This document shows, piece by piece, positions 1 to 36,279 of a stretch of 64,000 bases of DNA. The notes beneath the pieces are model-generated. The model was not told the origin of the DNA. It saw nothing but the letters and a program-made list of their open reading frames with translations, and made no database searches. The DNA comes from Eledone cirrhosa (lineage: Eukaryota). The position numbers were made by a program, and so were the translations under genes. Each line of letters opens with the position of its first letter. Position 1 is the first letter of the stretch. Where the stretch lies: the NCBI GenBank assembly GCA_964016885.1, contig OZ024741.1:86490001-86554000 (forward strand), in the 5' to 3' direction.

Positions 1-152
1 TCTCCCAGGTGAAAAATAATGACCAGGTAAAACCACCAACTGCAACTCCACCATAAGAAGAAAATTCCAAATTCTGGTTATCAATACCATCAATCATGGG
101 GCAGAGCACTTTGGTAGGATCTTTATGGATTTGAGCTAAAAGTGGGACAAGC
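1..152 (-). CDS. GALNT: GALNT catalytic-domain exon 4b (duplicate of exon 4a; runs off the window)
   Basis: Acceptor ttctttAG at 154-153, phase 2. Translates (W)LVPLLAQIHKDPTKVLCPMIDGIDNQNLEFSSYGGVAVGGFTWSLFFTWE, the GT27 segment WxxPLL...CPxID...GGFxW. Confidence 0.85.
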
Positions 153-1045
153 CTAAAGAAAGCACAGAAATCAAACATGAAAACAAATAAAAAAATTACT
201 GTAAAAAGTAAAATATTAATATATTAGTGTGTTTAGTAAAGGTTTTATGATACAAAATATGGCAAACATGAAAGGAATGAAAAGCTTTTTAAAAAAAAAT
301 CAATGTTAAAAGGGAGTCATAATTACGCCTTTACCATGAAAATATAATAGTATATATAGAGTAATGTGAATGCTAAAGGGTTAATGAGTCATCATTTTTG
401 TGACATATCTTAATGAGAGTCATACTTATTGTCGTCATCATCATCATCCTTTTCTGTCTGCTTTTCCATGTTTGCATGGTTTTTCCCAGCACAGCTTCCC
501 TCAAATTGTTGCCTTCCTTCATCTTCTCTTCTGTGAGGTTCTGCAATTTGAGACCAGTTCTCACCACTTCTGCCTAGGTCTTCCTCTACTATATCTTCTT
601 CACTCAATGATGCTATGCATCATGTGACAATACCTATGCAAACTTCTCTTTTACACACAACATCTGATTCCACTAATACTTGTTTTTCTTTGCTGCGGGT
701 TTTTCTTCTTTTTCTTATGCAGAAACTTAAGCTTTGACATGCAACCACTACGGATGGAAAAGGTTGGTGCACACCATGTCATGATGGCTTATTAAGACTC
801 AAACTATCAAAAATAAAAGACCCAGGTGTAGAGATCAAGTGACACTCTGATAGACAACTTTTCAACATCTACTCCAAACTCTACTCAAGAACACTGCCCA
901 ACATTGCCCTGATCACCAAATTTTAGTATGCAAAAGACAATTTTTCACCAGCACATACATATAAGGAGATGTAACAGTTAATTAATAACTGATCTGACTA
1001 TCAGCATAAAGAAAACCAAAATTTTCACACAACCTACTTCAAGGA

Positions 1046-1052
1046 CAAATAC

Positions 1053-1120
<68 letters not shown>
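1046..1120. repeat. (TA)n microsatellite
   Basis: About 35 TA units, seen directly. Confidence 0.95.
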
Positions 1121-1123
<3 letters not shown>

Positions 1124-1613
1124 TAAACGGAATAGAAAATGCTGACAAATTGTTCACAGTTGAAAAATGGTTTAATTAGGAGTAAAAGAGTATTAGTGAT
1201 TGTATGGGTTAGTATTCAGTTGTGGTTTTAAGTTTTTAAGTTTTTACCGGTTGCGCATTTCTAAATGCTTTTCAAAAATAATTTTGAGATAGAGTGTCCG
1301 TGTTGTTTGCTCTGATCTGATTAGTTTGGGGAATTCTACCTGTTTTTATGTTAAAAAAGTGGCTCCAGCGTTACTTTGGTGTTGCAAAAATTCTTGTGGT
1401 CAAAACAATTTTGATTGGTCGGTAGAGGTCATGTGAATGTAAAAAATTGATTTTGCGCCAAGACTGTTTTTATGTTAAAAAAGTGGCTCCAGCGCTACTT
1501 GGTGTTTGCAAAATTCTTGTGGTCAAAACAATTTTGATTGGTCGGTAGAGGTCATGTGAATAAAAAAATTGGTTTTGCGCCAAGATTGAGAAATGACTCT
1601 TTCACAACAAATA

Positions 1614-1645
<32 letters not shown>

Positions 1646-2606
1646 GCAGAGTAATTCGTGGTAGCAGGGATGGTCAGTAAGAATGTGTCTGAAAGCAATG
1701 GGGGGTATTTTAGCATGTCAATCGAATAATGTACACCATTTTACCAGGGGGGAAAAAAATACTGGTCCACCCACACACACACACACATACACATGCGTAC
1801 ATTAACATACAAAGAGACTTATACACACACACACACACACACGCACTTCTCCGTATAAGACAAAAGCTGAAAAATATCTTTTGACATGCTAAAATACCCC
1901 CATTGCTTTCAGACACATTCTTACTGACCATCCCTGCTACCACGAATTACTCTGCTATATACACACACACACACACACACACTTATCTTAATAGCCATTT
2001 GACACACATCCCTGCTAACCATTATCACAACATCGAACACCTTACAACTACTACACACACACACACACACACACACACATATTTGTTGTGAAAGAGTCAT
2101 TTCTCAATCTTGGCGCAAAACCAATTTTTTATTCACATGACCTCTACCGACCAATCAAAATTGTTTTGACCACAAGAATTTTGCAAACACCAAGTAGCGC
2201 TGGAGCCACTTTTTTAACATAAAAAGTCTTGGCGCAAAACCAATTTTTTACATTCACATGACCTCTACCGACCAATCAAAATTGTTTTGACCACAAGAAT
2301 TTTTGCAACACCAAAGTAACGCTGGAGCCACTTTTTTAACATAAAAACAGGTAGAATTCCCCAAACTAATCAGATCAGAGCAAACAACACGGACACTCTA
2401 TCTCAAAATTATTTTTGAAAAGCATTTAGAAATGCGCAACCGGTAAAAACTTAAAAACTTAAAACCTAAAACTTAAAAACTTAAAACCTAAAACTAAAAC
2501 TTAAAAACTGAATACTAACCCATACAATCACTAATACTCTTTTACTCCTAATTAAACCATTTTTCAACTGTGAACAATTTGTCAGCATTTTCTATTCCGT
2601 TTACCA
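1121..2606. repeat. Long inverted repeat / foldback (arms ~1121-1721 and ~1881-2606)
   Basis: tggtaaacggaatagaaaatgctgac at 1121 is the reverse complement of gtcagcattttctattccgtttacca ending at 2606. The arms are near-identical, each has an internal ~110 bp tandem duplication, and the spacer is ~160 bp. Confidence 0.95.
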
Positions 2607-2910
2607 ATATATAATAACTTGTGTGTTACACCTCTATTCTTTTAACTATATATATATATACATATATATACTTAGGCATACCTACATACGAACACACAAA
2701 TACATATTTATACACAGACACACACAAATACAAACATAAACATACACTCAAGTAAACACATATAGATACAGACATCATCATTTAATGTCCATTTTTTCTG
2801 TGAGCAAGTGTCCAAGTATATGTATTCGGAACTGTTTTTAGCTTAGTTTCTATGACACCACATTAAAGCATAGGCAGGGTGCTTTGTCGTGTCCACATTA
2901 CGACCAAGTT

Positions 2911-2953
<43 letters not shown>

Positions 2954-3169
2954 CAAGTATAATAGATAGTTTGATATATTCCCCCAAATGGCTGACTGAA
3001 CACAAACATGCTTTTTCTTTAAAAAATTTCTTCATTTATTTCTCATTTTATCTTCTGATGAAAGACTAACATCTGAAACCTTAAGACTCTTTTCCTACTA
3101 TTAAACTAATATATATCTTCATTGCACTGCATTATTTGCTTTGTTGTTTTCTGTTTACTTATGAACTGC

Positions 3170-3590
3170 TGTTCATCATAGTTCTCCAGGCCTTAACAGA
3201 GTAAAATGGGCGGTCCATGGGGAATTCTCTAGGCAGATGATTTGGTCCTTATTTCCGAAACCAAAAAAGAACTGGAAAATAAGTCCCGATTATGGAAACT
3301 GAATTTCGAATCAAACGGTCTGAGAGTCAACTTAGCCAAAACTAAAGTGCTAGGGAGTAGGGAAGAAGAAAGGACCCTGATTCTTTTCAGGAAGTGGCGC
3401 TGCTCAATATGTAGAAAAGGAGTAGGCATAAACTCCATACAATGTACACCCTGTAAATCTTGGGTACACAAAAGATGAAGTGGGATAACGAGTAGACTAA
3501 CAGGAAGGGAGGACTTTGTATGTAGAAGATGCAGAGGAGTAATCAAGAGGAAAAATGCCAGTGATATAAACCTTTTCCAGTCACATACCT
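3170..3590 (+). mobile_element. RTE LINE fragment (RT C-terminal part with Cys-rich finger)
   Basis: ORF 3242-3478 contains LRVNLAKTKVL...CSICRKGVGINSIQCTPCKSWVHKR, homologous to the larger RTE copies in this window. Confidence 0.85.
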
Positions 3591-3914
3591 TCACTCTTTT
3601 CTTCTATTATTCCTTGTTCTACTACTACTATGTCATATTACTCCCCACCTCACTAAGCCCATTCAATCTACCCCTTCAATCATACTCTTGCACCCTTCAT
3701 CCACTCAGCCTGGTTTCTCTTCTATCATTGCTCTCCTTTTCAACCCCATGGTTACATTGTCTTGAATGAACAGTGCTGGTGCCAGTACTGCGCAAACAGT
3801 ACATTCTAAAACATGGTTAGCAAATGAGTGGAGATAATACAAAGACATATATATATATATATCATCATCATCATCATGTATATATATATGGTACAGAACA
3901 CTGAGTTAATATAA

Positions 3915-4325
3915 TCCCTTCTTCTTTGCCCACTTATTCCTGGGAGCGTCATGGGGACAGTGTCCTCAAACAGAATCCAGCGGGTCCTGTCAGAATCAAC
4001 TGTCTCCAATTGATCCAGCTGAATCCCCAAGAAAGACCAGCTGAGCTCATGGATGTTGTCCAGCTATTTGCTCGGGGTCTACCCCTGAGTCTCCTGCCAG
4101 TTGGTTTTGCCCCCAAAATCTCTTCTGTGATTCTTTCCTGAGACATTCTAACCACATACCCTTAGTATCAGAGCTGTGATTTCTAAATTCGGAGAAGTAG
4201 TGGGCTACCTGGAGCGACTATCTGACCTCCGAGCTATGCACTATCAAGTAACGTTACTCTAAAGACGCTTTGGAGGAACCCCATTTTGGCCGCTTGTATT
4301 CGCAATCTTATTCTTTAGGTCATTA
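3915..4325 (-). mobile_element. 3' fragment of a second, degraded RTE-clade LINE family
   Basis: AKPTGRRLRGRPR C-terminal motif; related pieces lie at ~11140-11760, 12130-12710, 21285-21430, 28240-29200 and 37410-37610. Confidence 0.7.
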
Positions 4326-5214
4326 ATGATAATCTCGACAATTTTTAATAGAATGCAGCCATAGTGCTGTTTTGTACTTTTCTAGTCTTGCTAATGTGGT
4401 TTCATGAGGTACAGGATGTTACGAGTTAATAGCAAATAGATTTTTAAAAATTGCTATAATATAATATACCTTTGTGCTAATAACAACATTAAACATAAAC
4501 TATTATATTCTACAAATAGTAATTATATAAAGAACAAAGAGTATAGAATTATAAGCCGTATTATAGAATCAGAGAATTCATTTTAGTTGATTCTGCAAAG
4601 TGGTCTGGGAGGTGCCACGGAAAAAAATCACCCAGCACTCACTGTAAATGAGGTTGGTGTCAGGAAGGGCATCCAGCTGTAGAAATCAAGCCAGAATCAG
4701 TTTCCGTCCCACCCTTGCAAGCAGGGAAAAGCGGACATAGAATGATGATGATGATGATAGAAACATTTAGCTATGAACAAAGCCTACTGGAATTTATATA
4801 TAACTGAAAGAATTACAGTTATAAATTGATAAATTTTCTTATCAATGATAACGAAATAGAAAAAGAAAAGAGAATACAAAATTTAGGTATGCACACTAAA
4901 ACACATACGCATAGATGTACAAATTATTTACAAAACAAACATGTATGTAAAAATTGTATAGAGTCATTAGTTAAAAGAGACTGGTATGCATGGGTGACTG
5001 CTGGTCTTCCACAAACAGCCTTGCCTGAACTTGTGCCTCTGGGTGCAAATCCCATGGTCATTCGTGACCGAAGTGGGTTTTTACCATTAGTTAAAATCAA
5101 TATTTATACAGGCCTTTACCCCTTCCCCCTACACACATACATCTCCACCCCAAACATATGTACAGCTGACTAAACATGTGCACAAAAATATATATGTATA
5201 AAAAAATTGTTTAA

Positions 5215-5412
5215 CCCTTTAGCATTTAAACCGGTCGTATCTGGCCAGAATTCTCTCGTCTTTCTGTTCAAAATGGCTGTGACTGGCCGCTCATACTGAT
5301 GTTAAGGTATTGTTCTCAAAATAAATAACATCAAAATCTCATAGATTCATGAGGTAAAGCCTTTACCACAAAAATACAATAGTATATATAGAGTAATGTA
5401 AATGCTAAAGGG
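5215..5412. mobile_element. piggyBac-type MITE (~200-225 bp)
   Basis: TTAA|CCCTTTAGCATTT...AAATGCTAAAGGG|TTAA, i.e. terminal inverted repeats with a TTAA TSD. Confidence 0.8.
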
Positions 5413-6419
5413 TTAATAAAGGTATTTTAAAATATATAATTTGAAAGGGCTTTTTGTGGCTATATCGTTTAGTAAAAGACAAGACATTCCACAAAGTGTT
5501 CAAATATGTCCTTTAAATTCCATATATCAAAAGATGAAGAAGTAACTCATATTCTATTAAAGTTTCTAAATGAATAAATATGTTAGTGATATCTTTTTCA
5601 AATTGGTTAGCCTATATATGAGAAAGAAGACCAATTATATTAAACAATAGTGCCATACAGACTAGTTCTTTGGCTTAGTAATTCTCTTGAGAAGAGATAT
5701 AATTGGTACAAGTAGAAGTAAAATTACCAAGTTTATTTGGTTGGATATTAAATAATTTGATATGGTTAGCAATAGCAATGGTGAAAGCAAAATTGTATGT
5801 AGTAAAGTAGGAGATATTGATACTGTTTTTATTACAGAGTTTGTAGTATTATGGTTGGGAGGAGTGATTATACAAAAGTTTGAAAACATTTTTTACATAT
5901 ATTTACATGTGCATGTATACACAGACATACATGCATACATATATATATATATATATATTTATATACATACACACCTCACTCGAGGCAATGTTTTTCCATC
6001 TGACCCATGCTAGCGTGGAAGAATGGATGTAAAACGTTGATGATGACATATAGATAGATTTACAAATGTACATACATATATATATATGTATGGAACCATA
6101 ACACCTGATGGAGTTTTGGGATGCTATATTGACATATAATGTTTCTTGAGCATTTTAAAACCTGGCAGAGCCCATCTCCCCTCCAAATCAGAAGATTTCT
6201 TCCAGAGAAGGAAAGAGAGTGAGAAATAGATATAGAAGAAGAATCAACCCCAGTACTAGACTGGTATTTTTTTTTATCAACCTCGAAAGGATGAAAAGTA
6301 AAGTTTACCTCAGTGGAGTAGAACGCAGAAAGCCTGAATGTATACTCCAAAGTATTCTATCTCCAACGTTCTAACAACTCTGACAACTCACCTATATACA
6401 TGTATATCTATATATATAA

Positions 6420-7420
6420 TCATCATCATAATTTTTACGTCTGTTTTTCCACGCTTGCATGGGTTGGATGGGTCCTGCTCAACACAGTATCTCTCCACTC
6501 GCTGTGTTCCTTCGTCATCTCCTCTGTGAGTCTCTGCAATTTAAGATCAGCTCTCACCACCTCTGCCCAGGTCTTGCTTGGTCTACCTCTACTGAGGTTT
6601 CCTTCCACTGAGATTTCCTGGCACTTCTTCATCCAGCGATGATCATCCATGTGCATCACATATCTGTATGAAAGCAGTCTTCTCTCTTGCACACCACTTT
6701 AGATTCCTCTTAACCCAGTTTTTGTCTCAGTTCATCCAAGTTCTGCCTTTTTCTCACATATAGCACATCCAACAAAGCAAAGCTGCTTCATTTCTCTCCA
6801 GTCTACACATATCCCCTGCAGTCACTGCCCATATTTTACTACCATGTAGCATCACACTTTGCACAGTGTTACACAGTCATCCTTTTGTACACAGGGAGAA
6901 ACCTTTTGTTGTCAACAGTGGGAGTAACTCTCTAAATTCTTTCCATCCTATCCTTATTCTATCTATTATGTGCTCAGAGCACCCTCATTCACTGCTAATT
7001 AAGTCACCTAGATAGCAAAGGCTATCAACCACTTCTATGGATCCTTCATGTGATTAGAAAAGGTTTATATCACTGATGCTCTTCCCCTTGATTACCCCTG
7101 TCATCTTTTACATACAAAATCTTCTTTTACTGTTAGTTTACTTGATATCCCTCTACATTTCTTGTGTTTCCAAATTTACATTGTGTACATTGTATGGAGA
7201 TTATGTCTACTCCCTTTCTACATATTGAGCAGAGACACTTCTCTGGGGGAATCAGGGTCCTATCTTCTTTCCTACTCATTAGCACTTTAGTTTTGACTAA
7301 GTTTACTCTTAGACCTTTTGATTCCAAATTCTGTTTCCATAGTCAGAACATATTCTCTAGTTTTTTTATGGATTCAACTATTAGGACTAGATCATCTTCA
7401 TAGAGATGTTCCCATGGATA
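6420..7420 (-). mobile_element. Degraded 5'-truncated RTE LINE
   Basis: ORF fragments 6435-6692 and 7133-7327 match the RTE C-terminus; (ATG)n tail. Confidence 0.85.
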
Positions 7421-8102
7421 CACACACACACACATACACACATATATCACCATCATCATCATTTTAACATCCGCTTTCCCTGCTAGCAAGAGTTGGACGG
7501 GTCTACATAGACCAAGTCAGTACTGAAGCAAAGCAACTGATCTCCCAGGCAGGTCAGGGATCTGCATCTCACTTTATGTGTGGTCGATGCTCCACCATAT
7601 GCACAGGAGAAGTTGTCATGTCTTTGACACAACTGAGGGTCCTCCCAACCCTTTTGTTTCGCAAGATTTCTACGACTGGATACCACCCTTCCCATCACCA
7701 ACCACTTTACAGTGTGTACAGGGTGTGTTTATCATGTAGATCACCAACACTAAGGAGGCTGTCATGTCCTTGACATGATTGAAGAGTTCTACCAGCTCTT
7801 TGTTTGGCCCCCATGGCCGAATGTCCTTCCAATCACCAAATGCTTCACAGCAGTGGGCATGCATGGTGGGGTTGAAGTAGTGATGTTAAGGATAACTGTT
7901 GGGGAGTGCTAGTAGAGGCAGGGGCATGGGTGTAGGTCAGGTCATGTATGCTGTAGGTTAGGTCTTCCTCAGCACTGCATAGCACCAGTCCTCGCAGTCA
8001 TTAGTCATTTCTGTTGTGGTCTTGTTTCATAAAACCAGAGAGAGTTTTGAGTTGGTATTAAAAGTGTTGAACATACAGATCTACTTCAGTATACTGAATT
8101 AA

Positions 8103-8322
8103 CCATTTAGCATTTACATTATTCTATGTATACTATTGTATTTTTGTGGTAAATGCTTTATCTCATATAATTATCTCACATAATATCAAATCTATGAGAT
8201 TTTGATATTATTTATTTTGAGAACAAAACCGTAACATCAGTATGAGTGGCCAGTTAAGCCAGTTTGAACAGAAAAAGGTGAGAGAATTCTGGCTGGATAT
8301 GACCGGTTGAAATGCTAACGGG
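8103..8322. mobile_element. piggyBac-type MITE copy
   Basis: TTAA-flanked, same TIRs and body as 5215-5412, opposite orientation. Confidence 0.8.
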
Positions 8323-8822
8323 TTAAATTCAATCAGTTTTCTACTTGAGAAAATAAAGTTTCTTTATATACAGTTGTGAAAAATACAATTCCTACAATGA
8401 ACAATATGAAGCAAAATAAACACAAACACAGAATGCATACATGGTCCCGTAACTCCCGAGGGAATCGTAGAGGTGCCATATTGACATACATTTCTAGGGC
8501 ATTTTTAAACCTGGCAAAACCCATCTCTTCTCCAGGTCTAATTGGCCACCTAAATACAGAATAGTTATTCTTAAACTCATGTTGAAGATTAAGCAAAGAA
8601 TAATACATGGGTTTTTTTTGGTATGGTTATAATTAGATACCATAACAAAAGAAAATAATAAATAAATGCAAAACCACTAATAAGCTTGAAGCAATATCAT
8701 TTCCCCTATACAAAGAATTAAAGCAATTATCAAACAGGGTTCAAATAAAAATTTTGATATGAAAACTCCTGCAAAGCCTGAAGCAATATTATTGTCCCTA
8801 TACATAGAATGAAAGCAATTAC

Positions 8823-9014
8823 CGAACAGGTTTCACATCAAAATTTTGATATCCAGAAATTTTTTGCCAAGTAAAGTGCAAATTCCACCCAAAACCTCCA
8901 ACAACATAACTGCCAGTCGAGCCATATGACATGGTCGCAAAATTAATGTTATCAATTTCTGGACAGACTACTGTTGTTGAATTAGTTTTAATTCGTGAGA
9001 GCAGAGGTTCTATC
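8823..9014 (-). CDS. GALNT: GALNT exon 4a
   Basis: ctacAG acceptor (9016-9015) and GTAATT donor (8822); phase 2-2, 192 nt. (W)IEPLLSRIKTNSTTVVCPEIDNIN...GGFGWNLHFTW...KPVR, in frame with exon 3. Confidence 0.9.
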
Positions 9015-10852: not shown

Positions 10853-11030
10853 CAACCAGGACTAGCTTCACAATGTGCATCCAGAAAAATAATAACATCA
10901 CCACGGGCAGCCTGGGCTCCTACAATTCTAGCTCGAATTAAACCGGCACGTTCTTTGGTCCGAACTATTCTGACAATGTTATCTGGCCATGTATTATAAA
11001 TGTATTGCTTTAATTTGTTACCAAGTTCTT
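10853..11030 (-). CDS. GALNT: GALNT exon 3 (contains the DxH metal-binding motif)
   Basis: ttttcAG acceptor and GTGGGT donor; phase 1 to 2. EELGNKLKQYIYNTWPDNIVRIVRTKERAGLIRARIVGAQAARGDVIIFLDAHCEASPGW. Confidence 0.95.
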
Positions 11031-13614: not shown

Positions 13615-13781
13615 CTCTTGTACTGCTATCATCAAGTAAAATTACTTCTTTTAAATATTCAGGTGGTGACCTATTTATGACACTGTGGATAGTTCTAACA
13701 AGAGGAGAGAAAGCTTCATTATAATAAATGATTATCACACTGGCAGTAGGTAGATCTTTAGGGTACCTGATGTCCTGACAT
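13615..13781 (-). CDS. GALNT: GALNT exon 2 (start of GT-A catalytic domain)
   Basis: ttttttAG acceptor (13783-13782) and GT donor at 13614; phase 2 to 1. [55 protein letters not shown]. Confidence 0.95.
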
Positions 13782-23825: not shown

Positions 23826-26800
23826 TGTGGGTATGGTGTGGTGTGCGGTGGCCGGAAGCTGGGGAGTGCTCGACCGGAAGAGTGCTCGACTGGAAGAGTG
23901 CTCGACCGGAAGAGTGCTCGACCGGAAGGGCCAGCAGGTCGGCCTCTCTCTAGCGGTGATCAAACGTGGTGGACGCGAGTTTGGCAGCTCCCGGTGTTAA
24001 TAAGTTGGATCATACACACATGGAAGAGGAAAAACCAGCCATGGGATTTACCGGCGCCTATGAAAAGCAGTAAGTGAGATAGCTTTTTCTAACCACAAGC
24101 TATTTCGGCACTGGAAACTGAGATCTGATAGAAGAAAAAAAAAAATTTAAAAAAATAATAAACTTTCTCGAAAACAAAGCTACTGGAAAAACAGAGAGGA
24201 GTCTGTTGTTTTTTTTTTATTACTTAGCGCAATACAAATTAGGATGGCGATGAGACTACAAACGAGCAAAGCAATTAGGGCATTTTCCGGTGAAGGCGAT
24301 GTTGTCGCTTGGCTGCGAAAAGTCCGGCTGGTCGCAAGCTTACAGAAGTTTGAAGATGTGGTGGCACTGTACCTCGAGGGGGACGCGTTGGTTCGCTTCC
24401 TTGAAATGGATGAACACAGCCAAAGGGATGCGCAAAAGATCGAGAGGCACATGATGGAAGCGTTCGTGGAGGGACCATTAGCCGCTTTTGCTAAGCTGGC
24501 AAGAATTAGATGGAACGGTGAATGCGTTGACATTTTCGCAGCGGAAATACGGCGACTGGCCATGTTGGCTGGATATCAGGCGGAATGTGAATGCATGGTG
24601 CGGTTGGCGTTCATAAATGGATTTCCAGACGACATAGCGGTGAAACTGCAGCAAATCCCGGGTTACAAAGAAATGGAGATGCGTGCACTGGTGGAGCAAG
24701 CCCGCATCATGGCAGAAGATGCCAAGAAGAGTGTCGCGGCGATGGCAACTACAGAGGCCTAGGACAGTTGGCAGCAAAATGGTGAAAGGGAGGCAACCAC
24801 GGCACGCGGTCGCCCGCGAACGTTTAGAGGTCGCTGTTTTATGTGCCAGGGCCCGCACATGGCGAGAGACTGTAGAGAATCAAGGCCAGAAATAATATGC
24901 TACCGGTGTAAGCGACCAGGCCACATTGCTACTAACTGCGACCAGGGAAATGATCCAAGGGGAACTACTGCGCCGGTAGTTGCCCCTTACGAGTAGAGGC
25001 GCTGCCTGTGGTGGAAGTCTTCGTGAGGGGAAAGCCACAGCGAGCCCTCGTGGACACGGGCTGTACGACGACACTGGTGACCGCGGGAGTGGCGCAGAGG
25101 TGAAGAGGGAAGGGCAGCGTAAGGGCACGCGACGGTAGGAAAATTGAATGCAGCGAGGTGGAGATGGCGGTACGGAGAAGGAAAATAAGGCTTTCTGCCA
25201 TCGTAGTCGACAACGCGGTGGGTGGGATCGGCGTGGTTATGGGCATGGACGCAATTGGCCGTCTAGGAGGCGTCACAGTGAACAACGTCGGTGTGTTGTT
25301 TGGCGGCGCCGCATCGGTATGTGCGGTGAGTACGCGACAGGAGAACCAGAAGGCCCACGAGGAGAAATACCCCGCTGACACTGTGCAGGACAAAGACTTC
25401 AAGGCCGTGTTCGATGGGCAGCGATGGGTTGTTGAGTGGTATTGGAAGGGAGAACCACCAACACTGAAGACCAAAGTGGGCTGCTATCAACATACATTGA
25501 AGGGAGACATTAGGAGCGAATTCGAGTGAGAGGTAGAGAGATGGATTGAGGAGGGCATACTGCTTCCCTGGAAAGAGGAGGTGAAGTGCGGAGTATTGCC
25601 ATTAATGGCGGTGGCGCAATCCATGAAGAACAAGGTGAGGCCGGTACTGGACTTTCGGGAGCTGAACGAGCACGTGTCATGTCACACGGGTGGCGAGGTC
25701 ACGGATGTCTGTGGGGAAACCCTGCGTGAGTGGAGACGCATGGCGGGGGGGTTCCGCAATCGTAGATCTAAAGTCGGCATATTTGCAATTGCATATAGAT
25801 GAAAAGCTCTGGCAGTATCAGCTGGTCAGGTATAAGGGCCGAACATATTGCCTGACCAGGCTCAGTTTCGGGCTGAGCTCCGCACCGAAGATCATGGCGG
25901 CGGTCCTCAAGACCATTCTGGGAAAGGCCAACAAGATGAAGAGGGCCACTAATTGCTACATTGACGACATCCTAGTGGACGAGTCTGTAGTGTCGGAGGC
26001 AGAGGTCACGAGCCATTTACAGGGGTATGGACTGGCTGCGAAGCCGTCAGAAGCGTTGGAGGGAGGAGCTGCGCTGGGACTTAGGCTACGGCGAGACAGG
26101 ACGGGTGTCTTAGTATTCCAGAGGGGAAATGAAGTTCCAGAACTGGGCCTAAGTATGAGTAGGCGGGACTTTTCTCGGGGTGTAGAAAGTTAGTGGGTCA
26201 CTACCCAATTGCTGGGTGGCTCTGGACGGTATGCAGCTATGTCAAGAGACGAGCGAGAGGAGTGACTTGGAGTGACAGAGTGGGAGAGAGGACGGTGGCC
26301 ATGATACAGGAGATCGTATCATGCCAGCAGCATAGCGCCGGGTGTCACGTTGGAGATAGGAGGTGCTGAGGTCGAGGATGCAGCCTGGCTTAGGAAGGAC
26401 GACTGCAACCCCATCAATGTGGCCGAGCTGGACGTGGTGTTGAGAGGGGTGAACCTCGCCCTGAGGTGGGGACTGCGCACCATCGAGATAAGCACGGACT
26501 CGGCTACTGTACTCGGATGGGTGAGATCAGTGCTCACCAGTGAGAAGAGAGTGCGAACGAGAGGGGCGGCTGAGATGCTGATAAAGCGCCGCCTGGGAAC
26601 TTTAGGAGAGCTGGCCACCGAGTTTGACCTGAGGCTGAGCGTAGTTTTCGTGCCCTCAGAGAAAAATAGGGTGGACGTCTTAACCAGGGTGAAGAAAGCC
26701 TGGATGGAAGCGCCGGAGGAGGTAGAGGAGGAGATAGCTGCCGTGTGTCGGCTGACCGAGTCGGATCTGAAAGGGTTGCATGACATGCACCACATGGGAG

Positions 26801-27954
26801 TGGATAGGACTCTGATCCTAGCCAGGAGAATCGACTCGGACGTTGACATGCACAGTATTCAAAGAGTGGTTAGAGGCTGCGTCCGATGTCAGTCCATTGA
26901 TCCCGCCCGGGTGTGCACGAAACGGGAAGCCTCTCGGTGGATCGCGACTGGAAGCGATTGGTGGTGGATGTAACACACTACCGACAGGGAACGTACCTCT
27001 CGATGGTCGACTGTGGACCGGGACGGATAGCGATATGGAGGGAGATGAAGAATGGAACGGCCGAGGAAATCATGCGGACGTTGAGAGAGGTGTTCTTGGA
27101 GCAGGGACCTGTGGACGAACTGCTGATGGACAACAGTGCAGCATTCCGCTCGGAGGCGCTTAGGGAGATGCTCGATGGATGGAAGGTGGACCGTTTCTTC
27201 AGAGCCAGCGTACAGGCCGAGTGGAAATGGAATTGTGGTGCGACACCACCGGACGATCAAAGCAATGGCAAAGCGGGGCCACATCTCACCAATGGAGGCA
27301 GTGTTCTGGTACAACATGTCCCCTCGGGTGGGACAGGTTGAGGAATCGGTGCCACACAGAGCAGTATTCAGATACGAGTGGCGGCACCCGTGCACACCAC
27401 CACAGCGGCCAGTGGGGAGAGAGAATGCATTCGTGCAGGTGGGCAAAGAAGTCTGGGTTAAGCCCCCAGATGCACATTGCACATCTCAATGGGGAAGGGG
27501 AACGGTGACGGCCGTAAATTCCCAGAACAATGTGTCCGTGGACGGGGTACCACCTCATGTCCTGGACGTCCGTAGAATTACTGTGTCAACGGACTCCGAG
27601 GAAGAGGAAACCCAAAGTGCCGCCCCAACACTGCGGAGATCACAAAGAAGTCGCAAACCACCAACCTGGACAGCAGACTTTCATATGCAGAAGGACGAGG
27701 GGGAAATTGATCCTTGAGATCAGGGCGGCGTGTGGGTATGGTGTGGTGTGCGGTGGCCGGAAGCTGGGGAGTGTTCGACCGGAAGGGCCAGCAGGTCGGC
27801 CTCTCTCTAGCGGTGATCAAATGTGGTGGACGCAAGTTTGGCAGCTCCCGGTGTTAATAAGTTGGATCGTACGCATGTGGAAGAGGAGAAACCAACCATG
27901 GGATTTAGCGGCGCCTATGAAAAGCGGTAAGTGAGATAGCTTTTTCTAACCACA
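23826..27954 (+). mobile_element. Gypsy/Ty3-type LTR retrotransposon, complete but frameshifted
   Basis: LTRs 23826-24097 and 27731-27954 (TGTGG...CCACA), 5-bp TSD AGAAC. Gag with two CCHC knuckles, protease LVDTGC, RT YIDD, RNase H, then integrase (HHCC; VDVTH, DNSAAF) in Gypsy order. Confidence 0.95.
24945..24988 (+). promoter_or_regulatory. -1 ribosomal frameshift signal (gag-pol)
   Basis: In-phase slippery heptamer G GGA AAT followed after a short spacer by stem-loop AAGGGGAACTAC-tgcgccg-GTAGTTGCCCCTT. The -1 frame leads into the protease. Confidence 0.75.
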
Positions 27955-34331: not shown

Positions 34332-34657
34332 TTTTTATTGCGCACATCCCGCAGACTCCTGTCCAAAGCAATAGCATCACTTGCAATTAGATTAAAAGCT
34401 TCTTTAGCAAAAACTTTGTCTTGTTCAGCCTTACTGATTTGTAATATAACACGGTCTCCTTGTTCTCCCGGGCCTTTTCGATACGGCTCAGCTTTCTGAT
34501 AAGTTTCATACCGCTCTTTTCGGTATCTCAATATCTCTTCCTCATTATTTTTATTTGGTATGAAAAACTTCATATAAATGTAAACAAAAAGCAAAACGAA
34601 GGTAAAAGTTGACCATAACCTAACGTTAATTCTCCTTTTTAACCAAACCCGAAACAT
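34332..34657 (-). CDS. GALNT: GALNT first coding exon (type II TM anchor and stem)
   Basis: ATG at 34657; short basic tail, TM segment LWSTFTFVLLFVYIYM, then GPGEQG...FNLIASDAIALDRSLRDVR. GTAAGT donor at 34331, phase 2 matching exon 2. Confidence 0.95.
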
Positions 34658-36279
34658 TACTTAATAAAAGAACAAACAAGTAAATAAGTTTGATATGAAA
34701 TCAGTAGATGTTGACAATTGGCGAGTGATAACTTTAGTAATTAGTTTCAACTAATCGTTCATTTGTTGATGTTGCTGTTATTGTTTTCTTTACTTGTGGA
34801 TTAACTTGGATTACTTAAAGTTGTTCACGGATACGATAATATAAACACAAACGTATATATGTCTGCGTTAGTATGCATATATGTGTGGGTGTGTATGTTT
34901 TGATTGAAAAATCAATAAACATTTACCACGTTAACAAAATATTGACGTAGCCCTACAAATAAATGTTCGGCATTCAGCGGATTTTACGGAAATTGACGAA
35001 AATCTTATGATTAACGACTAGCATTCTACGTGAAATCATCTTTAGTTACCAACTCAATTTCCTATATCAGTCGAAGCTCTTTCTATATCTTTCTACCACT
35101 TAATGGGGGATAATTAATTTATTTTATATTCTGTTGCATTTCATTTTTATAATTATTTTCGCATGAATATCATAACATATCTATTAAAAACGTCAATAGG
35201 AGCCTTTTGATCTATATGTTGCAATATCATAAGGATGTAACCCCACTTTCTAAATTCAGGCATCCATAGCCGAACGAATAGACTTCCGAAATACCATGAT
35301 TTATCAGTAAACTACATTTTCCAGCTTGTGGCTTTCGAGATGTTTAAGGGAGCAGGGTTGCTGACAACGAGGTTTTGTCATTGCTGGTAGTTCCTTTTGA
35401 TGAAGTATCAGTTGATGCTGGTAAGGATGCTTGAATATTCTAGCATCTTACCCTTGCTATCACCCGGCTTTACTGAAGTATCAGGTGATGATCGCTATTC
35501 CTGTACCTTTGTTTAGCTACCACTCATGATAATGCTATGAGCGTTTTGACTTGCCTCAAACACTTTTAGAGGGAAACTAACATTCTCTGCTGTGATGCGT
35601 AATTGAATGTGCATGGCCTCTTGTCGTTTTTATTTATTTATTTCGCAAATCACGTTTATTATATAAATAATGTCTATTTATACATAACATTTTCACCCAC
35701 ACAGGACCTTGGGACGCAGCATGGCCGAATGTTTAAGAAGTTTGCTTCACAATCATTTATGATGTGGGTCCGATCCCAGTACATGGCATCTCGGGCATCA
35801 TTTATCAAAGCGTTGAGTTGATCCATGCCTTTTGAGTGAAACTGAATAGATGGAAAGTATTTGGAAGTCTGTCGAATGGACGGTACCTTAATTATGTTAG
35901 GGGTACATGTGTCTGGAATGTTATGGTAAAGGTCAGGGCCACTGCATCTGTAACTGAACGAAACAAAGTTTTAAAATAGTAAGAAGTATCAGCAAATTAT
36001 TTTTTCCAGCCAATGGTGTTCAAGTCGGGGTACTGGTCCGCTGACAAAATAAGTTCTTGTTCCCGTTGGTAACTTACCTTACTGTTGTATAAAGTGATGC
36101 CCTCAAGAGTGCACTGGTTATTCCAGTGCCTCAGCCACGCTATCATCCGTGTGTTAGCTTGCCTCAAAATTGATTAGAGGCTCCAGAACCCCGTGTGACA
36201 TATGATTGAGTGCACAGATCTTCCTCCCCTTTTTTCTTGTTTCATTATCTTCCCCTTTTCCTCTTCTTTTTTAGTACTT

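Follow-up and report, generated by a model that had tools for sequence, protein, structure and literature searches.

An old tandem duplication of exon 4 in a gly-9-like GalNAc-transferase gene of Eledone cirrhosa: probable alternatives for one peptide groove

The locus and its duplicated exon

The 64,000-nucleotide stretch of the Eledone cirrhosa genome analysed here (contig OZ024741.1, positions 86,490,001 to 86,554,000; ‘the window’) holds, on its minus strand, the first part of a gene for a polypeptide GalNAc-transferase (GalNAc-T) of family GT27, in which exon 4 is present as two tandem copies, 4a and 4b (Table 1). The architecture is complete and the exons are in order: a type II anchor, a GT-A domain with DxH, the Gal/GalNAc-T motif and a ricin-type lectin domain. 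In the ortholog of Octopus sinensis, PF00535, PF02709 and PF00652 all score above cut-off, and the closest solved structures are PGANT9 and GalNAc-T1. By these sequence features the product is a polypeptide GalNAc-transferase, predicted to transfer GalNAc from UDP-GalNAc to Ser/Thr. In a tree built without exon 4, the gene is sister to that of O. sinensis (98) and lies outside the ‘transferase 5-like’ clade (97), grouping instead with proteins named ‘probable N-acetylgalactosaminyltransferase 9’ and their nematode relatives. It is thus assigned to a gly-9-like subfamily, the link to gly-9 running through the protein name GALT9_CAEEL, as C. elegans GLY-9 itself is absent from the tree.

The gene has 11 exon slots, each of them single-copy except slot 4. 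When 5869 open frames over 183.7 kb (C2:86370301-86554000) were scanned with a profile, 12 GALNT pieces emerged, each on the minus strand and in order, with the exon 4 segment alone occurring twice. An earlier note, made from the letters of the window, had recognized both exons as the same GT27 segment and had placed them correctly. Its failure to see further copies of exons 1-3, or an SPTMAGG exon, between them extends to the whole scanned region, neighbouring DNA included, where no such extra exon was found. Both copies start and end in phase 2 and all sites are GT-AG. As the note had proposed, both acceptors match the donor of exon 3 (TG/GT at 10853); both donors match the acceptor of exon 5, which lies 10.2 kb beyond 4b, giving introns of 1838, 8670 and about 10195 nt. 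Exon 4b is 183 nt long in total, its last 31 bases being read from the DNA outside the window.

That both exons are open and strongly diverged, as first noticed, is borne out by the numbers. Windows of 63 codons are open at 295 of 8212 positions in the 4a-4b intron (3.6%), so two open copies exceed chance. 4a and 4b share 43% of their residues and 52% of their bases (52 codons), and a search of the whole genome (3.0 Gb) with 4a retrieves 4b at E 2.4e-8. Identity by codon position is 56/63/37%, with third positions diverging most, and of 20 shared residues 14 have codons that differ silently, the pattern of an ancient duplication under constraint on the protein.

Might the pair stem from two paralogs joined in assembly, from a duplicated haplotype, or from an exon copied recently and now dead? 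The full 11 kb is spanned by no read or contig. Against such an origin, exon 4 alone is doubled in the scanned DNA, with no second gene found, its copies share barely half of their bases, and 4b, 4a and exon 3 have similar contig depths (9.8, 10.8 and 11.4; run X1). The same a-b order recurs in 15 other species, and a duplication confined to octopods is rejected (see below). An artefact is excluded in practice.

Table 1. Parts of the window gene, and the exon 4 copies of a second octopod GALNT gene
Feature	Position	Strand	Remarks
Coding exon 1	window 34332..34657	-	GALNT gene; start codon, transmembrane anchor, stem
Exon 2	window 13615..13781	-	GALNT gene; GT-A catalytic domain start
Exon 3	window 10853..11030	-	GALNT gene; DxH motif, then phase 2 donor inside Trp codon
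Exon 4a	window 8823..9014	-	a-type peptide-groove exon copy, 192 nt; acceptor ..CTACAG, donor GTAATT
4a-4b intron	window 153..8822	-	8670 nt; GT-AG; rich in repeats; without GALNT exon
Exon 4b	window 1..152, on to G000:C2:86489970	-	b-type copy; acceptor ..CTTTAG, donor GTAATA
Exons 5-11	C2:86479774 to about 86453940	-	downstream of 4b
Tandem duplication, 92 nt	window 8670..8852	.	across 4a 3' end; intronic copy has AT at donor-GT position
C26 5-like GALNT exon 4, copy 1	C26:1016404-1016617		214 nt; AG/GT-bounded; open
C26 5-like GALNT exon 4, copy 2	C26:1022008-1022215		208 nt; AG/GT-bounded; open
C26 5-like GALNT exon 4, copy 3	C26:1030636-1030846		211 nt; AG/GT-bounded; open

Age of the pair and its forms in relatives

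Relatives were gathered by a search with the two-exon region (the best 120 of 5493 matches) and by cluster look-ups. The O. sinensis ortholog is annotated in three forms: a+b (P0001), a-only X2 (P0121) and b-only X3 (P0002). Its exons are 81% (4a) and 75% (4b) identical to those of E. cirrhosa, inside the range of 66-96% seen for constitutive exons; neither copy is therefore the unconstrained exon that the earlier note had allowed for. Two-exon gene models that passed a motif filter (octopus, five bivalves, seven snails, chiton, tardigrade) have a before b in 17 of 17 cases from 15 species, a count weakened by the fact that the a and b profiles were trained on 19 + 19 non-cephalopod mollusc exons, some from these very models, leaving only octopus and tardigrade independent of the training.

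Each copy is also found alone in mature messages of relatives. Among 16 annotated pairs of an a-only and a b-only protein, 13 come from one gene, the brachiopod Lingula included; 12 of these are identical outside exon 4, and the Mya pair has 3 differences. The remaining three (Bradybaena, Gigantopelta, Haliotis) are paralogs, about 35-40% different outside the exon. Independently of genome annotation, a cuttlefish cluster in the Logan assemblies of sequencing runs (with Sepia pharaonis) offers P0037, a-only on 46 contigs, and P0136, b-only on a 2267-nt contig, which differ at 0 of 228 residues before the exon and 0 of 270 after it. We read both as spliced transcripts: in genomic DNA an 11-exon gene could not give an open frame of 550 residues within a contig of 2-4 kb. 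Of 39 Logan proteins listed, 34 could be classed (five single-exon proteins fell outside the filter, and one a assignment is marginal): 29 are a-only, 5 b-only and none carries both, although these counts are lessened by being mostly near-copies from few species, with contigs favouring dominant forms. The arthropod and nematode proteins retrieved have one exon 4 copy each.

In a tree of 38 exons, which omits rotifer, crinoid and nematode rows, a and b are split with support of 97/89; 4a of E. cirrhosa stands beside octopus and decapod a exons, and its 4b beside those of octopus and argonaut. A duplication confined to octopods, with octopod a and b as one clade, was rejected by the approximately unbiased (AU) test (p-AU 0.0009), whereas a separate origin of the pair in the tardigrade (p 0.153) or in Lingula (p 0.147) was not. 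The pair can thus safely be traced to the ancestor shared by chitons, bivalves, snails and cephalopods, which is Cambrian. It is possibly protostome-wide, its age beyond molluscs being less firm.

Other lineages have arrangements of their own. In the rotifers P0052, P0074 and P0077 the models hold two copies of the segment with the a-like copy second, and the crinoid Antedon (P0120) has a two-copy model outside the gly-9 group; these are possibly further independent duplications. In Haliotis, Gigantopelta and land snails, the a and b exons that were recovered belong to different paralogs (P0042, P0068, P0088, P0055, P0103 versus P0051, P0071; P0078, P0021 versus P0057). The b-carrying proteins of Haliotis and Gigantopelta form their own gene clade (99), so a gene duplication may have separated the a and b exons in abalone-type snails.

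What the exon encodes and how one copy may be chosen

Residues 1-53 of 4a align with residues 234-286 of GalNAc-T2 at equal length, and the alignment to GalNAc-T1 is gap-free. Val255, Leu270, Phe280, Trp282 and Tyr284 of GalNAc-T2 are described among the residues that govern peptide specificity (PMC4432651), and all five fall in this segment. Phe280 and Trp282 are kept in both copies, while 4a and 4b differ at 255 (N/G), 270 (V/A) and 284 (K/S). Among the other molluscs, 19 a and 19 b exons have no common residue at columns 264, 266, 275, 281 and 284. The AlphaFold model of the b-only O. sinensis protein has the whole fold at a mean pLDDT (predicted local distance difference test) of 90. In the model of the a+b protein, a fills the helix-strand slot and residues 299-339, most of b, fall below 50, a result biased by an alignment made mostly of single-exon rows. 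The models thus suggest that 4a and 4b are structural alternatives for one slot, and from the exon’s position on this map we infer that the a and b isoforms would differ in peptide preference.

4a and 4b are adjacent homologous exons of similar length, with the same phases, intact sites and open frames. In all, this is a single gly-9-like gene in which exon 4 was duplicated in tandem long ago, and we consider it probable that it yields two enzymes whose grooves differ, with one copy taken per message. Each message would carry 4a or 4b, the near-exclusive choice arising from regulated competition between splice sites. The isoforms would share the metal and sugar-donor site, the flexible loop and the lectin domain, and differ in the peptide-binding groove. 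Different Ser/Thr sites would then likely be glycosylated, perhaps with a tissue bias. The earlier note’s proposal of one gene with an alternative exon 4 stands on the full gene model, the a-only and b-only isoforms of relatives and conservation; strict exclusivity is less secure, in view of the 17 a+b models, the 8670-nt intron and exon lengths that are multiples of three (3n). The great age of the pair and the triple exon of a second paralog go beyond that note.

Several observations weigh against this two-enzyme reading, and the first set concerns the octopod copies themselves. Octopod 4a sits on a long branch (0.78), is 50% identical to the cuttlefish-cluster a exon where cuttlefish and snail share 69%, has lost 4 loop residues, carries Gly where 19 of 19 a exons carry Trp, and fits the a profile just 2.6 bits better than the b profile. 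When outgroups are added, in a tree that also has rotifer and nematode rows, a and b no longer form one clade each and those rows find no firm place; FastTree puts octopod 4a outside a. The second set concerns splicing. With both exons 3n, double inclusion keeps the frame, and the 17 annotated models join a to b. A search of four region pairs for docking and selector helices, in the E. cirrhosa sequence alone, gave best candidates at shuffle level or in simple repeats. The three sequencing runs of this species cover introns and are hence genomic DNA.

Alternatively, both copies might be spliced as alternatives while in octopods one of them, most likely 4a, is under relaxed selection or rarely used, or the difference in specificity between the enzymes might be immaterial. 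The long branch and the Gly of 4a would fit this, as would the loop deletions in both copies, the E>V change in 4b and the b-only proteins retrieved from O. vulgaris and Argonauta. The short 4a loop and the E>V of 4b, both pointed out by the earlier note, are real, and the loop of 4b is even shorter than that of 4a (61 residues versus 67 in other molluscs). However, E>V is common to the b exons of O. sinensis, O. vulgaris and the cuttlefish cluster, and so appears as a shared coleoid trait rather than decay. Both copies are open with intact sites and as similar to O. sinensis as constitutive exons are, third positions are where they differ most from each other, and the diagnostic a/b columns are kept across molluscan classes. 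We therefore regard relaxation as unlikely.

How, then, would a message come to hold one copy only? No hard lock is evident: the intron is long and both exons are 3n and U2-type, so that short-intron exclusion, a frame lock and a U2/U12 mismatch are all absent, and no complementary element rises above chance. The two exons could accordingly be independent cassettes, with abundant a+b messages encoding an a-type enzyme with a floppy insert of ~61 residues, or an inactive form that tunes enzyme levels. Their shared 3n length and 2-2 phase, the 8670-nt intron and GT-AG sites throughout would permit this, the annotated two-exon models include several RefSeq isoforms, and the scan of the four region pairs detected no pairing element. 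Yet none of the classed Logan proteins has both exons, though a two-exon query would rank such proteins first, and the fold model accommodates a single copy. Annotation pipelines can, moreover, chain in-frame exons. Abundant double inclusion thus seems quite improbable, and we retain the choice of one copy per message.

The surroundings of the pair hold further features. The copies of the 92-nt duplication are 82% identical and cover the 3' end of 4a and its donor region; the second has AT for GT and hence no donor. Donors of exon 3 shifted 4 nt upstream or downstream were considered and rejected, as with 4a they lead to a stop or a frame shift. Within the 4a-4b intron, a nested inverted repeat of ~1.5 kb (window 1114-2613), with arms 92-100% complementary and many copies among the reads, resembles a foldback transposon; more inverted pairs lie at 3214-3531/7102-7418 and 5282-5417/8098-8254. 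One kilobase upstream of exon 1, on the minus strand, a 98-codon open frame (window 35674-35970) resembles a coding exon, with no Pfam match above cut-off. Fragments in intron 1 (window about 25100-27300) presumably derive from the reverse transcriptase and integrase of a long-terminal-repeat retrotransposon, and we take many pieces in window 14000-61800 to be reverse transcriptase of the long interspersed nuclear element type.

Known swapped exons, a second octopod gene and the meaning of the pair

Swapped exons are known from other GalNAc-Ts. In fly pgant5, splicing exchanges a segment of the catalytic domain between isoforms A and B, with tissue bias and altered peptide specificity (PMC12776162), much as proposed here; however, that segment is the flexible loop and a helix-turn-helix (residues 398-457), downstream of ours and in another subfamily, and few residues change, compared with 57% in the present pair. 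The duplicated alternative exon 8A/8B of fly pgant9 is described as a specificity switch (PMC6115407), but it replaces ~30 residues of the lectin alpha subdomain rather than part of the catalytic domain. In C. elegans, exons 9a/b/c of gly-5 and 8a/b of gly-6, a trio included, are homologous exons of 3n length whose mutual exclusivity has been tested; the main text of that study (PMC4165533) does not mention gly-9. Those exons measure 102-111 nt, lie late in the gene and are partly locked by introns of 11-34 nt, whereas the present ones are of 183-192 nt and lie 8.7 kb apart. We take the worm exons to fall in the lectin region. RefSeq models named ‘probable N-acetylgalactosaminyltransferase 9’ X1/X2/X3 of O. 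sinensis, Biomphalaria, Magallana, Mytilus, Patella and others are orthologs with a-only, b-only and a+b forms, in automatic and unremarked annotation. As of 2015, the sole cloned mollusc GalNAc-T was described as a group Ib enzyme (PMC6272458); PMC5407767 and PMC4122909 gave nothing further on this. Our literature search found no account of this exon pair, its age or its groove position, though catalogues of mutually exclusive exons in supplements outside the search could list it. The swapped-exon device is thus known for other segments in fly and worm, and the swap of this segment appears to be new.

The E. cirrhosa genome has at least 10 matches to GALNT exon 5. Where exon 4 was found, four genes have one copy, the window gene two and a gene on contig C26 three. 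The C26 copies are flanked by a single exon 3 and a single exon 5 and are 42-43% identical to each other. Copy 1 is canonical and 94% identical to cuttlefish; copies 2 and 3 are diverged, with an Arg within the GGF motif. A motif test among proteins P0148-P0246 recognized no ortholog of either, a weak test on a set drawn from a copy-1 search and clusters. Since the copies group with 5-like exons (100/99) and the gene belongs to a different subfamily, their duplication is independent of the window pair. With a length of 3n+1 (phase 1 to 2), the C26 exons preserve the frame only when a single one is included. The position of the intron ahead of exon 4 differs by 4 nt between the paralogs (phase 2 in a Trp codon at window 10853, phase 1 in a Gly codon at C26:1001181), which leaves exon 4 symmetric in the window gene only.

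With considerable reserve, the peptide-groove exon may be seen as a reusable specificity cassette of animal GalNAc-Ts: a gly-9 a/b pair predating the mollusc/tardigrade split, an independent 5-like triplication and separate a/b genes in abalone-type snails, each reading different mucin sites. If this were true, two octopod genes would supply five groove variants.

What does the pair offer to the wider field? The surprise is limited, as the device is familiar and the isoforms are already present in automatic annotation. How GalNAc-Ts choose Ser/Thr sites without a consensus motif is, however, an unsolved problem, and a natural pair, identical outside a stretch of ~60 groove residues and kept across molluscan classes, is a controlled swap that can be assayed directly. 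A candidate tissue is the oviducal gland of Octopus maya, where a gly-9 match is described as up-regulated at fertilisation and tied to egg slime (PMC8976471). The groove exon would be a third swapped module beside the lectin alpha loop and the flexible loop, suggesting that splicing widens the range of O-glycosylation in invertebrates, a task for which vertebrates have some 20 genes.

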